Assembly: GCA_951406725.2 (NCBI GenBank)
Contig: OX597826.1
Coordinates: 82,212,001 to 82,276,000, forward strand
Origin: Octopus vulgaris
Lineage: Eukaryota
DNA length: 64,000 nucleotides
Direction: 5' to 3'
The stretch's first letter is position 1, and each line of letters starts with the position of its first letter. Positions 1-59,479 of this stretch are shown here, in pieces. Under the pieces are notes generated by a model. That model did not search any database, was not told the DNA's origin, and saw nothing but the letters and a program-made list of their open reading frames with translations. The translations under genes were made by a program, and so were the position numbers.

Positions 1-716
1 ATGAATTGCAAATTTTCAGTAATGAGGCAAAAAAAAAAAAGCTCGCGCCTCGTTCATTATTTCATTACGTCACACTTAGTTAACATCTATTTATGTCCAT
101 ATTGTAATTTGCATAAAAATAACTTATTGCCGTCTACCGCCACAGCCACACGAGGGAAACATGCGGATGCTGGTCGTTCTTTGTAATTGCTTCGTGATAT
201 TGCGTGCCACACACACACACTAACACACACACGCAGAGACATACAGGCAGATACACACACATCCTCTCTACTGTGATGGAAAGTGATGCAATATAACCTC
301 ATCCTGAGTTAATGTCTGCTAGCAATACTCTAATATATCTTGGTGCCATTCCTTAGTTAAATTCCTGAATTGTTTGGAAAGAACTGCTCTGAACTATAGA
401 AATTTAGATATTCAGCCTTCAACGTTAATTTTATAAAGAAACAACTCTATCAGCTGAAGGGACAAGGGACTCATCCTTATTGAGCTGTTCTGCTCTCTAC
501 GTGACAACGTATACAATAAGCAAATGTATAAACCGGAATAAACAATGCTGGGACGATGGTTGAAGATCCAATGAGAATGAGAGGAAAATAAGGTCACGAG
601 TCCGTTGCCGCTCCTAATTTCCCGAGTATTTGGTTCGGTTTCCTTTCTCTTTTGAAGTGATTTCCTGTCACAAGCGTGAGTAACACTTTCAGGAAATATA
701 TGACCAACGCTTTACA

Positions 717-1040
717 TTGATTAAATATAGCATGAAGCTGGGTATCTGTGACCTCGATTCCTTGCTAATCTTTTCACGGAATGAACCTTTCATACAATTT
801 TCATGTCTAATCGATTCACTTCTCAATGACCCTTCGTGCTTTTTGTTGCATCGAGATTCCGTTTGCCACAGTTTTGTACCAAAAGTTTGTATCGAGATGA
901 TATTTCTGCAGCAGGACTGTGGCAGCGTTATAATGGATAGGAATGTATGAAATAAAGATTGTTTAGTTCAATAAAATACGGAGAATATCTCTCATCTCTT
1001 TATTTCTCTTCCTTACTCAATGCAATTATACATGGAACCG
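717..1040 (+). mobile_element. Highly decayed non-LTR (RTE-like) reverse transcriptase relic
   Basis: Translations LHRDSVCHSFVPKVCIEMI and SIKYGEYLSSLYFSSLLNAII resemble RT segments 'lhRdslw..lr.yGiP.k.i.mi' and 'GvkQGd.LSP.LF.l.lnai'; contains stops and frameshifts. Confidence 0.35.
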
Positions 1041-1589
1041 ACAATCTATCAATGAACGGACTCTTTACCGTATCAGTTTTCTTGGAGAACGTGTTTCTTG
1101 GAGAATGCGTTTCTCCTTTGAGGGAGGAGCGTTCGGAAAGGTCTGCAGTTACCATTCTCATGTCTCAACGAAGCCGATTCCAAGAAAGAAGATCGATGCC
1201 CAGAACTGATTGATACAACTTGTAATTATCTCATATAATGTCAAGGTTTAGTTGGAACTTGCTGAGCCGAAATGTAAAGAATTCAGTATATTGTTCAAAT
1301 CTATGACCATACACCTAACTATAGACAGACAGATGTGGAGCAGAAGGACGCAGCACATAAGGCATTCTATCTAACATTCTGACGGATTCGACACCTCGCG
1401 TGCGCGCACACAGAGGCACACGTACGCACATTTACTAATCCATTTATGAGAGCATCTTGTATCTGTACACATAACTACATATATCTATATGTGTGAAAAT
1501 ATGTGTATGTATATGCATGTACATGTATGTGTATATAGTCATATGTATGAACATTTACGTCCAGATAGACATATGTATTACAGTGTTTG

Positions 1590-1593
<4 letters not shown>

Positions 1594-1642
<49 letters not shown>
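1594..1642. repeat. (TA)n microsatellite
   Basis: Directly visible. Confidence 0.95.
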
Positions 1643-1645
<3 letters not shown>

Positions 1646-2029
1646 CATATAAACGTGTATATTTCTTTATACATCTACAGAAAATGCATGATACTTATGC
1701 ATTACGTTGACGTGACAATAAAATCATGAAGTTACATGAATGCATTGTATGCATCTATCAGAATAGATATACAAATAACCACGCTGAAACCGGTTAGAAA
1801 ACCTCAATAAATATTTATAGCAACCCAGTATTTCAATCCGTATCTTCCCATATGACACACTTTGAAATTTCTTATTAGAAATCAAGTTATGTCAAAGAAT
1901 TCAATCTTATTTTGAAATTGCTGGGCGAGAAACTAATTCATTTACAAATATTCTTTTGTGAACAATGAAATATTAAATATCAACATTGTATACAAAGAAA
2001 CTCATGATCTGAATCTGACGCACCTGAAT

Positions 2030-2400
2030 ACACAATTACTTCCAGGCTTGACTGAACTGTAAACAACAACACAACACCCATATAGAACGAAACAAAGTCT
2101 TCCAACAATATTCTATCAATCGACTCTCTACACATATACTATCCTCCTCTCCTGTGGTATGCCTCTTCCTACACAAGTAATTCCCAGACGTATGTACAGT
2201 AATTCTAATTAACACTTCACATAACTCCTCAAACCCCAGTAAAAACACCATGTCAAAGACTAAATAAAGACAAAAGGAAACAAGGTGTAGCACAGTCTGA
2301 CGAAGGATAACAGACCGAAACTTCAAATTTATTGTCACAACTCTTCTTCTATAAGTTCAACAAACAAGCATCTGGAAAGAAGTTTCGAGTAATTCTTCAG
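2030..2400 (+). mobile_element. Possible Penelope-like terminal-repeat relic
   Basis: CTGACGA-AGG-n8-CC-GAAAC at 2297-2321 is the hammerhead-like signature typical of Penelope terminal repeats; stems I and III are not intact. Confidence 0.3.
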
Positions 2401-2449
2401 CTTAATGTTACAAATTTATTTTATATATCACCTGACATAACAATAGACG

Positions 2450-2452
<3 letters not shown>

Positions 2453-2483
<31 letters not shown>

Positions 2484-2530
2484 TAGATAGATAGATAGAT
2501 AGATAGAGAAATACACAGACACAGACACAG

Positions 2531-2619
<89 letters not shown>

Positions 2620-2790
2620 CATACACATAAATCTACATACAAATAAATGCACATATACATGCACGCATACATATATACATAGATACATGCACACACAAAC
2701 ACGTATATAACTATAAATACACACACATACACAACACACACAAACATATATATATGCTTGTGTGTGTGTGCACATATGTATGTATATACA
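2453..2790. repeat. Compound microsatellite (TA)n/(GATA)n/(CA)n
   Basis: Directly visible; explains the low-complexity ORFs at 2408-2826. Confidence 0.95.
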
Positions 2791-3254
2791 AATCCGACAT
2801 TTGGAGAAGGATCTTTGCAAACGCATTATTTTGTTCCTTTTGCAATCTAGAATCGTCTAGTTATTAAAAAGCTTATATTGATAGATTTTGGGAGAGTTGA
2901 GTGCACGATGATATTACCACTTGCAGACACACACGCACATATATATATATAAAAGCAAAGTATCAAGATGTAGGAAGATTATAAGCTTCGAGAAGTCCAT
3001 AGAAGATATAAATTTCAGGAACAGCAGTGGTTTATTGACTTTTAGAGGGTTGTAAGTTTTTGCCGTATTGAGATAGCAGTCAAAATTTGAATCTAAAACC
3101 GCTTCATATATTCATACGGCACAAGGTGAAAAGACAAATAGACAAATAAACTAACAAAAATTATTGGATAATCTCAGATCCGGATTTCTGGTTCTGTATA
3201 AAAATATACCCCGCCTCCTCAGTAACATAAACACAGATAGTACATAATTACAAA

Positions 3255-27339: not shown

Positions 27340-29957
27340 ATGTACCTCTATTACCCTATCACATATTTAATCTGCCAAAATAGCTCCTTAGAGTTGCCTG
27401 GATATTTCGTATGACATCATGTCTTTTCTGCTCTTTGTCGCTATAAACACCAGTGGCCTTTTCCTCTCTGTTTAGAACTGCTTGATGTCGGTTTTATACT
27501 AATGTAATCAATTTCTCTCCCCTTCCCCCACACTAGTTTCAGTTAAACAGACTAAGTCATAGCCGCTCCCTTATTAGGATTGAGTATGATGAATTTGTCC
27601 AGCTCGTGTAGTTAAGTAATTGATTGGATGTTAGTGTTAATGTACAATCCCTATTCTTAATTTATTTTTTATTTAATATTTTATTTTGGCTTGGATGAAA
27701 ATTTAGATTAATGGTTAAGGCTACAAGAAAACTATTTTATTATTATTCAGTGTTCAGAAAATCCAGAATTATCCAAGGAATATTGTTTCATTTAACGCAG
27801 CGTAAATTATAGTGATAAGACATGAAATGATTGGATATTATAGATATCACTAAATGTGCTTTAGTAGCGATTTAACAACACATTGCTTCACACAATATCG
27901 CATGAAAGGACATCTAAAATGATGTAGTAAGATGCAATAAGGCGTATTTGCGACATTCACATATCTCCGGGCAATATTCCACTTCTATAACGTGATATGC
28001 ACCACTGGAATAATGGTAGGATAGGAAACTTTCCAGTGAAGGAGAGTTAAATGTGCTAATTGGTTAATTTAGGAATGATAGGGTTAGTATAGAACCATTG
28101 AGCAATCAAACCCATTAAACTCACTTGCTATGATGATCTGGACGTACTTAATTAGTTGCTACACAATAATTCAAAACACAATTATTGTTTCTTTTGACGT
28201 TATTAATTTGTACACCAAAATTCCTTCTGTTAATTGATTCAATGCGATAAAATATTGGTTGGATACATATGAAATTGAATTATCAGACAGCATGGAAAAA
28301 AAAGTATATTATTGATGGTCTGAGATTCATTCGGACATAAAATAATTACTTCACATTCGATTAATTAGTGTACCGTCAGCTATCAAGGACTGTGCTAGGA
28401 ACCATAGTTAACCCACGGCACATGCCAAATAGTTTCATGTGTTACCATGAAGAGAACTAAGAACTCTTAGGCAGAATGTACTCAAATATTTGGAGACGCA
28501 TTGTACACATTCTAAACATAAAACTGGGAAAGGTCCCCAGTCCACTGCTTGATTGTATGACGACAGGAAGATCTCAATAACCTTATGAAACATGAACACG
28601 CTAACAGATAATATAAACTACAGAATTCAGATGACAATGGAATTTATTCAAAAAGAACAACGATTTCCATATATTTTAATCCTGAATATGTGAAAGAATA
28701 AAAGCGGATATTTACGAAAACTTATGGATTATTTGCACATCCTGTCATCTTAAACAGACAAAAATAAACACATCTTACAACTTAGTTAAGTGTTATGGGT
28801 CAGCGACGGTATGAAACAAAATCTAAGGAAAGTGGCCGATGGTCAGTGACGGCATAAGTCAGGCTCCATTATAACTGATCAGTAAGATATAGTGTGTAAG
28901 ATAGTATTCTGTCACAATTGGTAAAAGTTTCAGTAAATTTGATATTGAAAGAATCAGCAAAATACGTTATTCGAGTAAAGTTTTATTGTTCAATTTAAGT
29001 AAAATGGAGAATTAAGATATCAGTGTTAGTATAATACAGAATCCGAATAAGTGTTAGTTGCCAGTGTCGGTAAATATCACAAAATGGAGTTGTTATTGAT
29101 TGGCAATTATTTCAGAAACGATAGGTCAATCCCGAAACGTCAGATTTCTCCTCGAGTAACGATGTACAATCATGTCTAGTTAATACCAGTGACACATAAG
29201 CTGTTTGTACTTGGACAATAGCCACGAACTTAATATTCATGAAATGAATCTAGATATTGTACAAACGAGATAGTTTCTGGCCATGTTTACGGAAATATAA
29301 TTTCACATCATGTTACATACTACCGAGTTGTGGTTGTTGCATTCGGCGTTGAACTAACTGTGTCTCTCCACTTGAAGAATTTTTGTTGAAATTGTTCTTT
29401 TTTGCAACTGAAGTGTCTTTTGCTCTCTTTAGCTGTCAGGAGATGATGCTCACCATTAATCATTCTACTGCATGGGGAGTATCCTACCAAATCCTTCATC
29501 AGTTACAATTAATTATAATTTACTGAAGCATAATAAAACAATTGAAGGCCATAACTTGTCTTGTAACTAAATTGATGGCAGAGACCAGAAATATTTATTT
29601 CAAATGATATTGTTGACATGATCCTAATTCGATTCACATAATATCTTGGCAGATTTTCCTGTAGTTACGTTGACCAGTTTCATTTTAATGATTAGATTCC
29701 ATGCGTGGATCTAAATTTCATTAAATCTACCAGAACTTCCGCTGCCTAAATTATCCTTGAAAATTAATGGTTTTCTTTGACAAAAGGTTTGACTGGCAGG
29801 AAGACTTGGCGATGTAAACAAATAGATGCCAATTACACTTATTCAAAAAGAAGAATGAATTTTCAATGTTATTTCATTTTCTACGTAAATGAGATGAAAT
29901 CACGTTTATATATTTGTTGTGCAAGATTTTTTATGGGAAGTCGTGTGTTGAAACATA

Positions 29958-30095
29958 TATTGTTATATTTCGGAATGGTCATTTTGCCAGTTTAGCCAAT
30001 AAAAACACACGCACTATTTTCTTCATTTTGCCAGTTTAGTGCGTGTGTTTTTATTGGCTAAACTGGCAAAATGACCATTCCGAAATATAACAATA
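29958..30095. repeat. Perfect inverted repeat, 59 bp arms, 20 nt loop
   Basis: Arms 29958-30016 and 30037-30095. Confidence 0.95.
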
Positions 30096-31878
30096 AGAGA
30101 TGAAATCATTTTTATTTGAAACTTTGACCATCATAAATAACAAAAATTCTTGTTTTCTCGTAAAGATCGAAAAACTACATCAACTGTTTTGGACTTTAAT
30201 TGAAAAACGGAGCCGGAAAAAAATTTCGTTTGTTCGACAAAAGATTTTGTTATTCAACTTGCCACGTCTTTTTCATGACACTCTTCATTGGATAAAATAG
30301 ATTATTTAGACTTACGGTCTACAACAAAAATGGGCTGATGAATAATTTTCATTATAAATATTATATGGGGTCGATAAAGAAAGTACCAATATCGTATTAA
30401 ATTGCGTGAGTTTGAAGAATCATCATCACATAGCTCAAAATGTTTCGTTTGACTCTCAAGAGTCAAGTCTCATGGAATTCAACTTAGTCTAACATTCTTT
30501 CGAAATCGATAAAATTAATCACCAGCCAATGGTAAGGGATCTGTGGAATTGTCAGAACTGCAGACGAGATGCGCTGCGCTAGATTCTCCGAGTCTTCGCG
30601 TTACGGAGTCTTCGGTGTTACTCTTATTCTGACTCTCAGAATAACTTGGTTATTATGCACCTCTGGCTGAGTTCAGTTTCTTACAAGTATTCGAATCTGG
30701 TAATTTCTTTCCATCCATCCATCTTGCAGGTCCCGTACGTGGTGCAAAGACAGTGGCTCAAAGGTGCCACCCTGACTTTACTCACAAAACAGTTACACAC
30801 AGAAATGCTACAAACGATTAAGCAGTTTTCTAACACATCATGACTTCTGGTTAGGTTAAAACTTTAAAGGAAATTAAAAAAATGCCAGCCTTGGATTTAA
30901 CCACATCTACTCATCTGAGCTTATTCTTATTGTTGTTGTTTAACACCAGGTCAACTCTAACTGAAAATGCGTATGCTCACAAATCCTTCTCTTAGCTGTG
31001 GCAGATCCAAAGAGCCGAATATTAGTGTCGACATAATCAACGTATCTCTTCCACCCACCAAAATTGTTGGCCTTGTGTTTAAATTTGAAACCATTATTAT
31101 TATCATTATTATTATTATTATTGTTGTTGTTGTTGTTGTTGTCATCGTCGTTGGACAATGTTAAGAAAAGCATTTCAATGAACGTAAGACTAAAATATTC
31201 AAATCATCAGCGAAAATACATAATCTAGGGATAGAAGTCGGTTCACGCCGCGTAGACTTTCATTTTCTACATTTCTCGTTACTAGCCTCTCTCAAGATTT
31301 CCCACCAACTTGCTCCCTGTCATTTCTTTAATGATACTTCAACGTTACCTCATTTTTCCTACACCTGTTTCAATATTTAAATACATAATACTAGTAGCTT
31401 TGGCCGGGTTACGCAATATATCGGAAAATATGACCCAACACATGATATTATTTTCCTTGAAGACGTTAAGCCCTACACAAAATTTCAGCTACCAAAATCC
31501 CAGAAATGGCGTGGATTGAGTTATGACGTACGTTTAGGCATGTTTGTTTCGTTCTTACCGCTTCACAGGTAGACTTCGAAATCCCACTAACAAGCAACTC
31601 CATTAATTTCACTCCAGCACGCTCCCAACACTCTATTAAGCCGACCGCTTCCAGATACTGCCAAAATCTTATGCTTGCATCTAAACAGCGTTCCCTTCTC
31701 GTCTTAATTGTCCCGTGTAAAAGCAGTTCCCTTCCTTTCCCCTTTTCTTGCTGGGGATTTCTTTTCTTCATCCTTCTCCCTATGCTTCTCTCTTGCTCTT
31801 TTTCTGATGAAGTTCTAACGTACTCCTCACCTTTTTTATTGCTCAATATATTCAGTACACTGTTTATATTTGTACGCA

Positions 31879-45151: not shown

Positions 45152-45702
45152 GACCTCTATTGCAAATGCTATATAGGGACACAGTCTGTGTGTCGATAGC
45201 CAGCTGAAAAAGATGTTCTCCAGGGGCTAAAACAACAGTAATACCATCCTTTAAAGGACTGCCACATTCTGTTGGCATATAAACATTACTAACCGGTTCT
45301 GTTACTGTATATCTCTCGCTCAGAGATTTAAAACAAGTTGTTTTTCTCGATACGAGATCAGCGACTGTGTATCGCTTAAAGAATGTATTTAGTATTCGCA
45401 AGTGGAGAGAGCTTTCATCCCTAACCTGCGATTGTCTTACACTGAGGAGAGGTAACCACCAAGAAACCTAGGTCTGTGAACATCAGGTAAGGCTAGAGAT
45501 GGGAGCGATGACCTTCTTTGCAAATGCTATAGGGACACAGACTGTGTGTCGACAGCCAGCTGGAAAAGATGTTTTCCTGGGGGCTAAAACAAAAGTAACA
45601 TCGTCCTTTATAGGACTGCCCCATTCTGTTGGCGTACAGAATATAATATTCGGTAGTGTTACTGTATATCTCTCGCCCGGAGATTTAAAACAAGTTGTTT
45701 CT
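45152..45702. repeat. Pair of diverged ~190 bp direct repeats, offset 358 bp
   Basis: 45152-45348 vs 45510-45702: tgcaaatgcta..agggacacag.ctgtgtgtcga.agccagctg.aaaagatgtt..aggactgcc.cattctgttggc..gttactgtatatctctcgc..gagatttaaaacaagttgttt. Confidence 0.9.
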
Positions 45703-45714
45703 CTCTCTCTCTCT

Positions 45715-45755
<41 letters not shown>

Positions 45756-45763
<8 letters not shown>

Positions 45764-46021
45764 GGGTTCAGCAAAGATTTGCTTTACCACATACCCAAGT
45801 TTAGAAATAGCAGCCAAAAACCGTTAGCTATTTCTTCTACTTTAAAAAGGGACTCCCAGAAAAATCAAAATACTTGAAAACAATCCAAAACAAATGTTTT
45901 CAAGTATTTTGATTTTTCTGGGAGTCCCTTTTTAAAGTAGAAGAAATAGCTAACGGTTTTTGGCTGCTATTTCTAAACTTGGGTATGTGGTAAAGCAAAT
46001 CTTTGCTGAACCCTATTTATT
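45756..46021. repeat. Perfect inverted repeat, 127 bp arms, 12 nt loop, between two (TA)n tracts
   Basis: Arms 45756-45882 and 45895-46021; (TA)n at ~45718-45755 and 46127-46163. Confidence 0.95.
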
Positions 46022-56259: not shown

Positions 56260-57960
56260 CCGCCTACTGTAATAGGATTTGTTTCTGTTTTTAAGCTCCA
56301 TGTTCGACTTACCTCTCTTTCCAGATCTTTGTATTTTGAAAGTTTCTCCGTTTCTTTTAGAGAAATATTGTTATATGGTTTGTTGTTTCTTGTCCATCAC
56401 CACATTTTCTGCAGTTACTTGTATTTCTTTACATTACATGTTTTTGGTTATTTCTAGTGGGGTGGCTTTGGTCTCGTGCTACAATTAAAAATCTTTCAGT
56501 CTCTGCTTTTGAGTCCTGAGTTTCTCAGCCTTTGTTGGGATTTTGCTTTGTCTATTTCTTTTCTGTTTATTTTAACCCAATATTTGCCACGAACGGGCTT
56601 TTCTTGACATCGTTCTATCATGACACGCTCCTGTTCCAGTTTTACTTTGGATTTCTTTGTTGTTTCTTCTTTTTCTTCATAGCTGTTAGGTACCATAACT
56701 TCTTTCTTGTATTTGTCAGCTCCCTTAAAGAAAGAAAACTTTTTCCTTGCTCCTGAAGTAGTTATTTCTGTAGTTCTATGGTTATTTTCTAATAGTTTTC
56801 AAGCCGTATAAGGCCTCTACCACCTTCGATACATTGTATATATAGCTCCCTCCATGTCAGATTTTGGGTGGTGCATCCCAAATCCTGTCATTATTTTTCT
56901 TGCATTTCTATCTATTTTCATTAGTTCATTTAGAGTTCAGTTAAGAATATTGTAGATGTAACTTATAACTGGGACAGCTACAGTGTTGAAACCTATTTTC
57001 TGTTTTTCGCATTAAGCTCTGTTTTCCGTGTTAGTTTAACTCGTCTATAGTAATCTATTCTTATCTTCTCTTTCATTTGTGTGTGTTGTATTGTATCTAG
57101 TTTATCGATTCCGAAGTATGTGTATGTCTGGATTTGGTCTAATTCTCATATTTCATTTGCGTTATCTAGTGTGATGCTGCTACTCTTAACTAGTTTTCCT
57201 TTTTTCGAAGTTGCTTTGGCACATTTTTCTAAGTCAAATTTCATGTTTATTTCTTTGGTAAATCCAAATACTGTTTGTAGTAATGTTTCCAGCTGTTTTT
57301 CATTTGTATCATACAGTTTTAAATCATCCATATACAAAAAAAAGGCCGATCGTTTTGCCGTAACAGTTGTATCCACATCCAGTTCTGTTTAGCATATCAG
57401 ATAAAGGTTTCAGCGCCAAGAAGAAAAGGAGTGGAGAGAGCGTGTCTCTCTGGAACATTTCTCTCCCAATGGGGATATCTTTAGTCTTTATGAGTCCCTC
57501 TTCTGTCTGGAGCTGTACCACTGGGAAATACTATCAAAAGCCTTTCGGTAATCGATCCATTCCTACTTAGAACCTTCTTCTTTCTGCGGTTGTCTTCAGT
57601 TATAGCTTTATTGACCAGTAGCTGATCTTTAAAGCCGTATGAACCCGTTCAGGCATTGTCTCTGGCTTTGCTAGTATTTCATCAAATTTCTCAGCCAGCG
57701 TTTTATGTATTCTTGTTAGATACTTTAATCAGAATTTGAGGATCTTGTCGTGCTCGGATGCCTTCCAGTTGCCTAGTTTTTGCAGTGCTGGGTTGACCTC
57801 TTCAGTTGTTATAGGAGTCCAGAGTTCTTCAGGTGCTGTGTTTGTTGTTTTGATAGAACTTTTCTGAGGGTGTTCCATCGCCGACCTTATTAATTTCCAA
57901 AATTCTTCCACTTCTTCTGCTGTTGGTGCTGCATTGATCTCTATTTTATTTTTGCCAAGT
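56260..57960 (-). mobile_element. R4/Dong LINE relic with multiple deletions
   Basis: EEVEEFW, NWKASEHDKI, REMFQRDTLSPLLFFLALKPLSDMLN, FLYMDDLKLY..MKFDLEKCAK, SGLKSRD, EKLSKYKDLEREVSRTWSLK. Confidence 0.85.
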
Positions 57961-57989
57961 TCAGAGGTCTTTGGCCAAGTTAAGAGGTC

Positions 57990-58213
57990 CTTTTGCCTAT
58001 CGTTGGTTGTTTCAGGGTATTTAGCCAGTCCAATTGTGATGGTTTTGTACGTAAGTTCAAGCTGGATCAAGCCTCGACCTCCCTGAGCTCTGGGAAGGTA
58101 AAGACGATCCACGCCTGCCTTTGGATGGTGCACCTTATTACCGGTCAGTAGCTTGCGGATTTTTCTGTCAATTTTCATTATTTCACTGGTATTCCAGTTA
58201 AGCACATTGAAGC
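57990..58213 (-). mobile_element. Separate R4/Dong fragment abutting (TTA)n
   Basis: SFNVLNWNTSEIMKIDRKIRKLLTGNKVHHPKAGVDRLYLPRAQGGRGLIQLELTYK; the same region is already present in 56760-56960, so this is a second copy. Confidence 0.85.
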
Positions 58214-58399
58214 TATTATTATTATTGTTATTATCCTCATTATTATTATTATTATTATTATAATTGTTGTTGTTGTTGTTGTTATTATTATTATTATTAT
58301 TTATTATGTCTTCGTTTTTAATACTTTGTTTTATAAGAGCTGTTCCAAGTCTCAACTAGAGACTTAATTAATTAAAGATACTACTACTACTACTACTAC

Positions 58400-58450: not shown

Positions 58451-58730
58451 TAATGATAATTGTCAAGACGAAGAGCGCGATTCGATTGTAAGATATTTTA
58501 TTAGTTGAACGATATTTCAACAGTACGTCTGTCTTTGTCAAGTTCAAAATAAGTGATAAAAATTCAAAATTACAGAAATTTATACGTAAAGTATGAACGA
58601 GAGCAACCAGCGTCATCAGTTTGATATGAAGCCCACGGCTCCGATGATTGCAGAAACATTTGTTATTCACAGGTGTCTCCGTAACCTTTCAAAAGTTTTC
58701 ACAGACGTATTGCATACTGTTGGGAGTGAC

Positions 58731-58764
<34 letters not shown>

Positions 58765-58990
58765 GAAATATTAAAATTACTAAGTCTCTCTAAAAGAGAA
58801 CAACGGCAGCGTTCCCGGAAAATAATAGTTATCGCCATACTAATATGGCATTCTTATAAAAATAAGAATAAAGCTGTCCGCTTATTAGCTCCATGAGGCC
58901 ATCGCCTTAAGTTAGCTATTTGATACACAAACTGTATCCATATAGCCTTCGAACAAGGGAGGTCAGTCGCTCTACACTACTTGATCGACA

Positions 58991-59032
58991 GCTACAGACG
59001 CGTTTCGGGGTATTGCCCCTTTTCAATGCAGC
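58991..59032 (-). ncRNA. Mirror copy of the same hammerhead motif
   Basis: Exact reverse complement of 59126-59167 in the left arm. Confidence 0.75.
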
Positions 59033-59125
59033 GTAGCCAGACCAGTAGGTGTCGCTTCTGACAATCTCTGTTCGAAGGTTTTATTTACAGAGATTGTCAG
59101 AAGCGACACCTACTGGTCTGGCTAC

Positions 59126-59167
59126 GCTGCATTGAAAAGGGGCAATACCCCGAAACGCGTCTGTAGC
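59126..59167 (+). ncRNA. Minimal type I hammerhead ribozyme, U3:A8 variant
   Basis: Stem I GCTGCA/TGTAGC (one G-U), core TTGAAAA, stem II GGGG-caata-CCCC, GAAA, palindromic stem III ACGCGT, GTC cleavage triplet. Confidence 0.75.
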
Positions 59168-59479
59168 TGCCGGTCAAGTAGTGTGGAGCGACTGACCTCC
59201 CTTGTTCGAAGGCTATATGGATACAGTTTGTGTATCAAATAGCTAACTTAAGGCGATGGCCTCATGGAGCTAATAAGCGGACAGCTTTATTCTTATTTTT
59301 ATAAGAATGCCATATTAGTATGGCGATAACTATTATTTTCCGGGAACGCTGCCGTTGTTCTCTTTTATATATGTATATATATAAGGAAACTATTTATCAA
59401 TAGTTCTGTTGGCTTGAATAGCTCCATCAATTTGAAAGTTAAATTTGCAAAATTGCTGAGATCTTTATTTTTCTCCTAC

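Follow-up and report, generated by a model that had tools for sequence, protein, structure and literature searches.

Hammerhead ribozymes in which the core pair between positions 3 and 8 is changed from C-G to U-A have been described before. Perreault et al. (2011; PMC3088659) reported the first natural C3-G8 to U3-A8 covariation, with several examples, and stated, citing earlier work, that U3-A8 is active in vitro. In Schistosoma mansoni, the Cercyon Penelope-like elements (PLEs) carry minimal hammerheads with U3-A8, and ~1,300 hits were found (PMC4209133). The U3:A8 swap itself is therefore not new, and the novelty implied by the first-pass annotation of the locus described here is not supported. 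Retrozymes have been proposed to be non-autonomous derivatives of PLEs (bioRxiv 10.64898/2026.07.22.740005), and in the anole Poseidon PLE PAc, mutations in the hammerhead had no effect on insertion in vitro (PMC11167929). Further background is given in PMC3884650, PMC6155905, PMC6765202, and PMC7151607. Our literature search, whose coverage was partial, found no U3:A8 retrozyme family and no amplified C3:A8 form; the supplements of PMC4209133 and PMC7229834 may hold such cases.

The window analyzed here is a 64,000-nt stretch of Octopus vulgaris DNA. Rereading of the sequence confirmed that the letters of a hammerhead with three stems, a UUGAAAA core, and a GUC site are present on the plus strand at 59126-59167, as originally annotated. 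Stem I is formed by 59126-31 with 59162-67 and stem II by 59139-42 with 59148-51; between them lies the core at 59132-59138 (U3 U4 G5 A6 A7 A8 A9, with U3 at 59132 and A8 at 59137), which is supported by the copies as well as by the sequence. Loop 2 (CAAUA) occupies 59143-59147, GAAA occupies 59152-55, and the palindromic helix III hexamer ACGCGU, which is also supported by relatives, lies at 59155-59160. By established hammerhead numbering, cleavage is predicted after C59161, the last base of the GUC triplet at 59159-59161. All core elements of a canonical type I hammerhead (C3/U4/G5/A6/N7/G8/A9, G12/A13/A14, A15.1-U16.1, and H17) are present, except that the 3-8 pair is U3:A8 and not C3:G8. 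Stem I resumes beyond a UAC/U bulge, where 59118-22 pairs with 59169-73, and the motif accordingly extends past the 42 bases first given. Sequence, folding, and covariation together point to a full type I hammerhead at 59118-59173, consisting of extended stem I, the bulge, stem I, core, stem II, and palindromic helix III. The motif had been classed as minimal, a label that does not hold: it has a 6-bp helix I, a 4-bp helix II, a short palindromic helix III, and conserved loop and bulge letters, as in canonical metazoan type I hammerheads (PMC4209133), and it lacks the long helix II, short helix I, and absence of a defined loop 1 that mark the minimal hammerheads of PLEs. By analogy with the known type I fold, a tertiary contact is predicted between loop 2 and the bulge in stem I. 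The U at 59168 in that bulge, a position in no search pattern, was invariant in 27 of 27 representative copies (described below), and the U at 59123 was present in at least 90%; the CAA..A loop 2 was kept in all 16 of the older copies retrieved without use of the loop. In this respect the UAC/U bulge and the CAAUA loop are probably similar to the elements of the tertiary contact in the Schistosoma ribozyme.

A second hammerhead lies on the minus strand at 58985-59040 (U3 at 59026, C17 at 58997), with identical core and stems and 2 changes in the extended stem; the same 42 letters thus recur at 58991-59032, inside a 281-bp inverted repeat formed by 58791-59071 and 59087-59367. The arms of this repeat mismatch at 3 of 281 positions, none of them within the 42-letter motif. 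The whole insertion (58759-59367) consists of two fragments, 5'-truncated and arranged head to head, of a 363-nt noncoding unit, numbered here from the first base 3' of the predicted cut. The left arm (58759-59088, minus strand) contains approximately unit positions 272 to 363 followed by 1 to 239, ends at the main 3' end site of the family, and takes in the 15-nt “spacer” of the inverted repeat. The right arm (59087-59367, plus strand) contains approximately positions 289 to 363 followed by 1 to 206, so that the full unit is present in neither. A (TA)n tract at 58734-58761, the likely insertion target, flanks the insertion on the left and a TA-rich stretch at 59366-59383 flanks it on the right, and no reading frame of at least 120 aa overlaps it. 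Folding of the insertion predicted a single 281-bp hairpin (-551.6 kcal/mol). Because its inverted arms are predicted to form one hairpin and no cut-to-cut unit is present, the window copy is likely inert, a dead end. We also considered whether this copy is a chimera broken at the cut. The left arm has 2 letters of another subfamily just 3' of the cut, without the other markers of that subfamily; no such pattern was seen elsewhere, and the idea was dropped.

Predicted folding of the motif depends on fragment length: 59120-59170 favors a shifted stem I, whereas 59110-59185 regains the hammerhead stem I, so short constructs of 42 to 56 nt may mislead. An Rfam search of 58700-59450 (E ≤ 10) gave 15 matches, none of them a hammerhead, and there was no hammerhead among the 150 of 244 matches listed for the whole window. 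The miss is likely explained by the absence of helix III in the monomer together with the swapped core. It also bears out the expectation that a search restricted to CUGANGA would overlook the motif: none of the 19 hits to CUGANGA...GAAACGCGUC, which have the same helix III, carries the stem II of the family.

The annotation had set the family consensus as a check on whether U3:A8 is a private feature of this copy. A genome-wide pattern combining TGANNA with the stems of the family matched 1125 times, and 1118 of these matches read UUGANAA; the tight pattern gave 1118 matches compared to 0 for a reversed control, which excludes chance as the origin of the motif. We also retrieved older copies through a motif ~190 nt downstream, so that the core played no part in their selection. 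At the 28 nonoverlapping loci examined in this way, 16 of 16 older copies carried UUGAUAA. U3:A8 is likewise retained in older subfamilies that are 15 to 25% diverged, in which N7 is A, C, or U. (Invariance of the core in 14 of 14 copies of another row set was discounted, since those rows had been picked by their core.) Among the matches listed from contigs of four sequencing runs, which are not on record as RNA and do not reveal ends, strand, or level, there was no difference at position 3 or 8. U3:A8 is the consensus of the family and not a private double mutant. The descriptor search allowing U3/A8 that had been proposed was run genome-wide in a looser form, with 4-nt stem II arms, a CAA..A loop, and GAAAC-NN-GUC, a pattern that counts this loop type alone. 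It returned 3136 U3:A8, 898 Y3:G8, and 143 C3:A8 hits, with 0 reversed-control matches for each, and U3:G8 made up 7 of the first 100 Y3:G8 hits listed. U3:A8 thus accounts for 75% of the 4177 hits, although these hits are related copies and do not count as independent events. This differs from the examples of Perreault et al. (PMC3088659) in that three quarters of the descriptor hits in a single genome have the swapped pair and the path between states can be traced.

Pairing of the stems was assessed in 27 representatives, chosen by hand from several related families. The expected partners paired in 91.9% of 459 cells, compared to 27 to 47% in slid controls, and 15 of 17 pairs were altered on both sides, with covariation in all helices. 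The 3-8 pair was U-A in 17 representatives, C-G in 9, and U-G in 1. Because the core and the CAA loop were required both for this set and by the genome-wide descriptor, invariance at those positions is built in. The center bases of helix III were Watson-Crick complementary in 26 of 27 representatives, and the center was self-complementary in 176 of 186 distinct segments; four forms were seen, and the center letters vary among relatives. Since complementary adjacent bases cannot pair with each other within one strand, this points to action as a dimer, as had been proposed. Consistent with this, two window motifs were predicted to cofold as a double hammerhead (-47.9 kcal/mol, compared to 2 × -20.9 kcal/mol), and for natural tandem pairs the double hammerhead was the unconstrained best fold in 2 of 2 cases, with helix III probabilities of 0.83 to 1.0. 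As a separate observation, the first stem II pair in a large C3:G8 family is often a mismatch (U.U or C.A) instead of G-C (L131, L144, L115, L173, and relatives).

With the arm as query, 40 of 880 candidates in the 2.8-Gb genome were scored and gave at least 105 matches, the best of them 99 to 100% identical. Copies occur as head-to-tail units, with a spacing of 362 to 364 bp in many arrays, and as two-armed inverted insertions. The family resembles the metazoan non-LTR retrozymes of coral, mussel (350 to 390 bp), and axolotl (PMC7229834) in being built of noncoding tandem units of 150 to 450 bp with one canonical type I hammerhead per unit, in its thousands of copies, and in its self-paired predicted circle. 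One natural unit folded as a circle gave -119.7 kcal/mol compared to -82.8 ± 4.9 kcal/mol for 60 shuffles (z = -7.5). It differs from those retrozymes in its U3:A8 core pair and in its two-armed insertions into (TA)n with a pair of fixed 3' ends; its circle and its cutting are predictions. Neither “inverted” nor “microsatellite” appears as a word in PMC7229834. We mapped 49 loci, made up of the 29 best matches (chosen for query coverage) and 20 from the pattern list. Of their 82 arms, 71 end at unit positions 173 to 179 or 236 to 243, while the 5' ends are scattered, and most flanks are (TA)n. Partial tandems, an inverted truncated copy, a tail, and a microsatellite target are the marks of mobilization by a PLE as described in PMC8557442, and the family has all of them. 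The anole PAc (PMC11167929) likewise uses two internal start sites, giving a “tail,” inserts at AT-rich targets, and extends both DNA strands, but PAc encodes its own enzyme, and the octopus tail is ~63 nt compared to 30 to 40 nt in PAc. With the Cercyon hammerheads (PMC4209133), the octopus motif shares the core swap, abundance, a palindromic helix III, a dimer model, and a link to Penelope. As for the association with Penelope-like elements that the first-pass annotation drew, the insertion footprint supports it, whereas the carrier turns out to be a noncoding retrozyme unit and not the pseudo-LTR of a coding element.

Within loci, tandem units share variants: both units of L022 carry A6G, L021 and L053 each have an altered stem II, and L026 and L028 are further loci with variants common to their units; the units of L004 differ from each other. 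Variants shared in this way are as expected if one template is copied repeatedly. An enrichment of 5' junctions at the cut was sought and rejected, with 8 true junctions in 15 matches at the cut compared to 7 in 10 for a single control site lying 18 nt downstream. Separately, all 7 listed copies in which base 17 is changed and the upstream core letters are present carry C17A, never G or U; these copies (L070, L072, L074, L075, L082, L083, and L084) make up 7 of the 15 cut-junction matches. C17A keeps an NUH site, and the copies that carry it may form one sub-lineage.

To examine how the core pair changes, we built trees with rows chosen from the related families. A 50-row tree (54 chosen rows minus 4 that were missing), built with positions 3 and 8 masked, needed 2 changes between U3:A8 and C3:G8. 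A 52-row tree included a related ~359-bp family, whose U3:A8 and C3:G8 members can be aligned closely along the unit; in this family, U3:A8 rows were basal to a nested clade (99/93) of two young subfamilies, one with C3:G8 (4 rows) and one with C3:A8 (9 rows, 99/92). The young C3:A8 subfamily, which comprises L185 to L193 (e.g., G000:C4:80857199-80857949), accounts for 19 of the first 100 hits listed, at 12 loci, and has tandem arrays; its copies are near-identical. An older family also holds many C3:A8 copies, which the tree does not resolve. The deep tree is unrooted and the rows were analyst chosen, so it does not fix the ancestral state of the whole group. At the level of sequence comparison, these results confirm that the 3-8 pair covaries between related lineages. 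For the ~359-bp sister family, we infer that the simplest path is U3:A8 to C3:A8 to C3:G8. We tentatively suggest that this series is a stepwise record of change at an active site in which the mismatched form multiplied, a possibility that we rate somewhat below even odds. C3:A8 RNA could have been cut in trans by the partner's core in the double hammerhead, an option suggested by the helix III palindrome that the three sister subfamilies share, or tertiary contacts could accommodate C3:A8.

We favor a mechanism, to which we assign a probability of roughly 0.7, in which a full type I U3:A8 hammerhead occurs once per 363-nt noncoding unit, of which the genome holds over a thousand near-identical copies, tandem copies cut after GUC as a double hammerhead, and the product is inserted into (TA)n in the manner of Penelope elements. 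The observations behind it are the sequence itself, copy number, consensus, covariation, copy layouts, two 3' end sites, and TA flanks. Tandem donor copies would be transcribed; for the paired hammerheads in the transcript a double-hammerhead fold is predicted, and they would cut after GUC. Monomers would be released from cut to cut and then ligated into circles as for other retrozymes (PMC7229834); the circular monomer is predicted to be strongly self-paired. A Penelope-type enzyme would then probably write the RNA into (TA)n DNA, with reverse transcription starting from both nicked DNA strands at two internal sites of the RNA. Since reverse transcription would run across the cut site, the template would be a circle or an uncut multimer. 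The two fixed 3' end sites, which are reminiscent of the paired start sites and “tail” in the anole PLE (PMC11167929), support this mechanism, and the window copy would be a two-armed, truncated product of such an insertion. Judged from sequence evidence, the motif likely functions at the level of the family. The earlier argument from covariation to function is upheld in part: the 3-8 pair does covary, but a mismatched C3:A8 subfamily was amplified as well, and the window copy itself is predicted to be locked in a hairpin.

Amplification of the C3:A8 subfamily implies that spread does not strictly depend on an intact 3-8 pair. It could be taken, together with the many C3:A8 copies in the older family, to mean that the fold is kept while cutting is slow or dispensable, in which case uncut multimers would be the templates and the structure would serve as an RNA fold or an enzyme-binding handle. 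The lack of 5'-junction enrichment at the cut (8 compared to 7), the continuation of nearly all arms past the cut site, the A6G change in both tandem units of L022, and the role of uncut RNA as the main substrate in the anole PLE (PMC11167929) would all fit such a reading. We nevertheless consider it unlikely, as mismatches are a minor class (143 C3:A8 hits, plus 7 U3:G8 in the first 100 listed Y3:G8 hits, against 3136 U3:A8 and 898 Y3:G8), the at least 2 double switches on the tree finish as Watson-Crick pairs, and published retrozymes cut and circularize (PMC7229834). The even split of 5' junctions and the A6G units of L022 nevertheless count against the favored mechanism, as do the anole PLE, whose insertion in vitro was unchanged in hammerhead mutants (PMC11167929), and the lack of a homologous end in the coding PLE family that was searched.

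Much less probable is an origin of the repeat as a pseudo-LTR that became detached from a coding PLE, which would make the motif a PLE minimal hammerhead. The Penelope-type insertion footprint, the U3-A8 pair known from PLE minimal hammerheads (PMC4209133), and the proposal that retrozymes derive from pLTRs (bioRxiv 10.64898/2026.07.22.740005) would accord with such an origin. Against it stand the canonical architecture of the hammerhead and the arms themselves, which in the 49 mapped loci, an incomplete sample, run into TA repeats or further units and never into a reverse transcriptase (RT) frame; in addition, a protein search for an autonomous partner found 30 loci of one coding PLE family, none with an end homologous to the unit. 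We give hardly any credence to the notion that U3 and A8 arose through decay, whether of a dead copy or in one lucky founder. Both changes are transitions, and the youngest subfamily is nearly uniform, so that its 1118 copies approximate one event; yet U3:A8 persists across subfamilies 15 to 25% apart, although N7, the stems, and helix III change. A private mutation is ruled out by the 1118 of 1125 copies and the 16 of 16 older copies that carry the swap.

In this genome the swapped core is the majority form (3136 of 4177 hits), so surveys restricted to CUGANGA would miss most retrozyme hammerheads of this loop type. We regard the three-state core series in the ~359-bp sister family as the most interesting lead. 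Its sister subfamilies are ~90% alike and differ at positions 3 and 8, with an amplified mismatch among them, and they offer a test of whether retrozymes and Penelope elements need self-cleavage in order to move and of the way in which evolution crosses a paired active-site position. Should the stepwise record prove true, the genome would hold natural, near-isogenic core versions for asking how much cutting retrozymes need.

Several minor observations concern coding elements and the surroundings of the insertion. At L215 (positions 601-3021; G000:C5 near 50.46 Mb) there is an 806-aa open frame of a PLE with, as read by eye, a Cys-rich linker ahead of a GIY-YIG motif, as described for Neptune/Nematis; it belongs to the coding PLE family whose 30 loci were compared with the unit. 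A Pfam search of 7 frames gave 1 hit, RVT_1 in L033, and none among the 4 window frames. An older, decayed relative of the repeat group lies in the window at 45171-45763. It comprises ~1.6 units with a 357-bp period and ends at (TA)n; its core at 45442 is of the C3:G8 type, its stems contain mismatches, its helix III palindrome is 8 nt long, and it is 64 to 77% alike to L161, L195, L200, and L202. The window therefore contains both core types. Starting at a (TA)n tract, a perfect 127-bp inverted repeat at 45756-46021, common to L141, L138, and L105, looks like another two-armed insertion. A short inverted-repeat element at 29902-30117 is found also in L063 and L081. On the minus strand at 57729-58355, a 208-aa frame is broken by a TAA-type microsatellite; as read by eye, its later part resembles a non-LTR retrotransposon protein.
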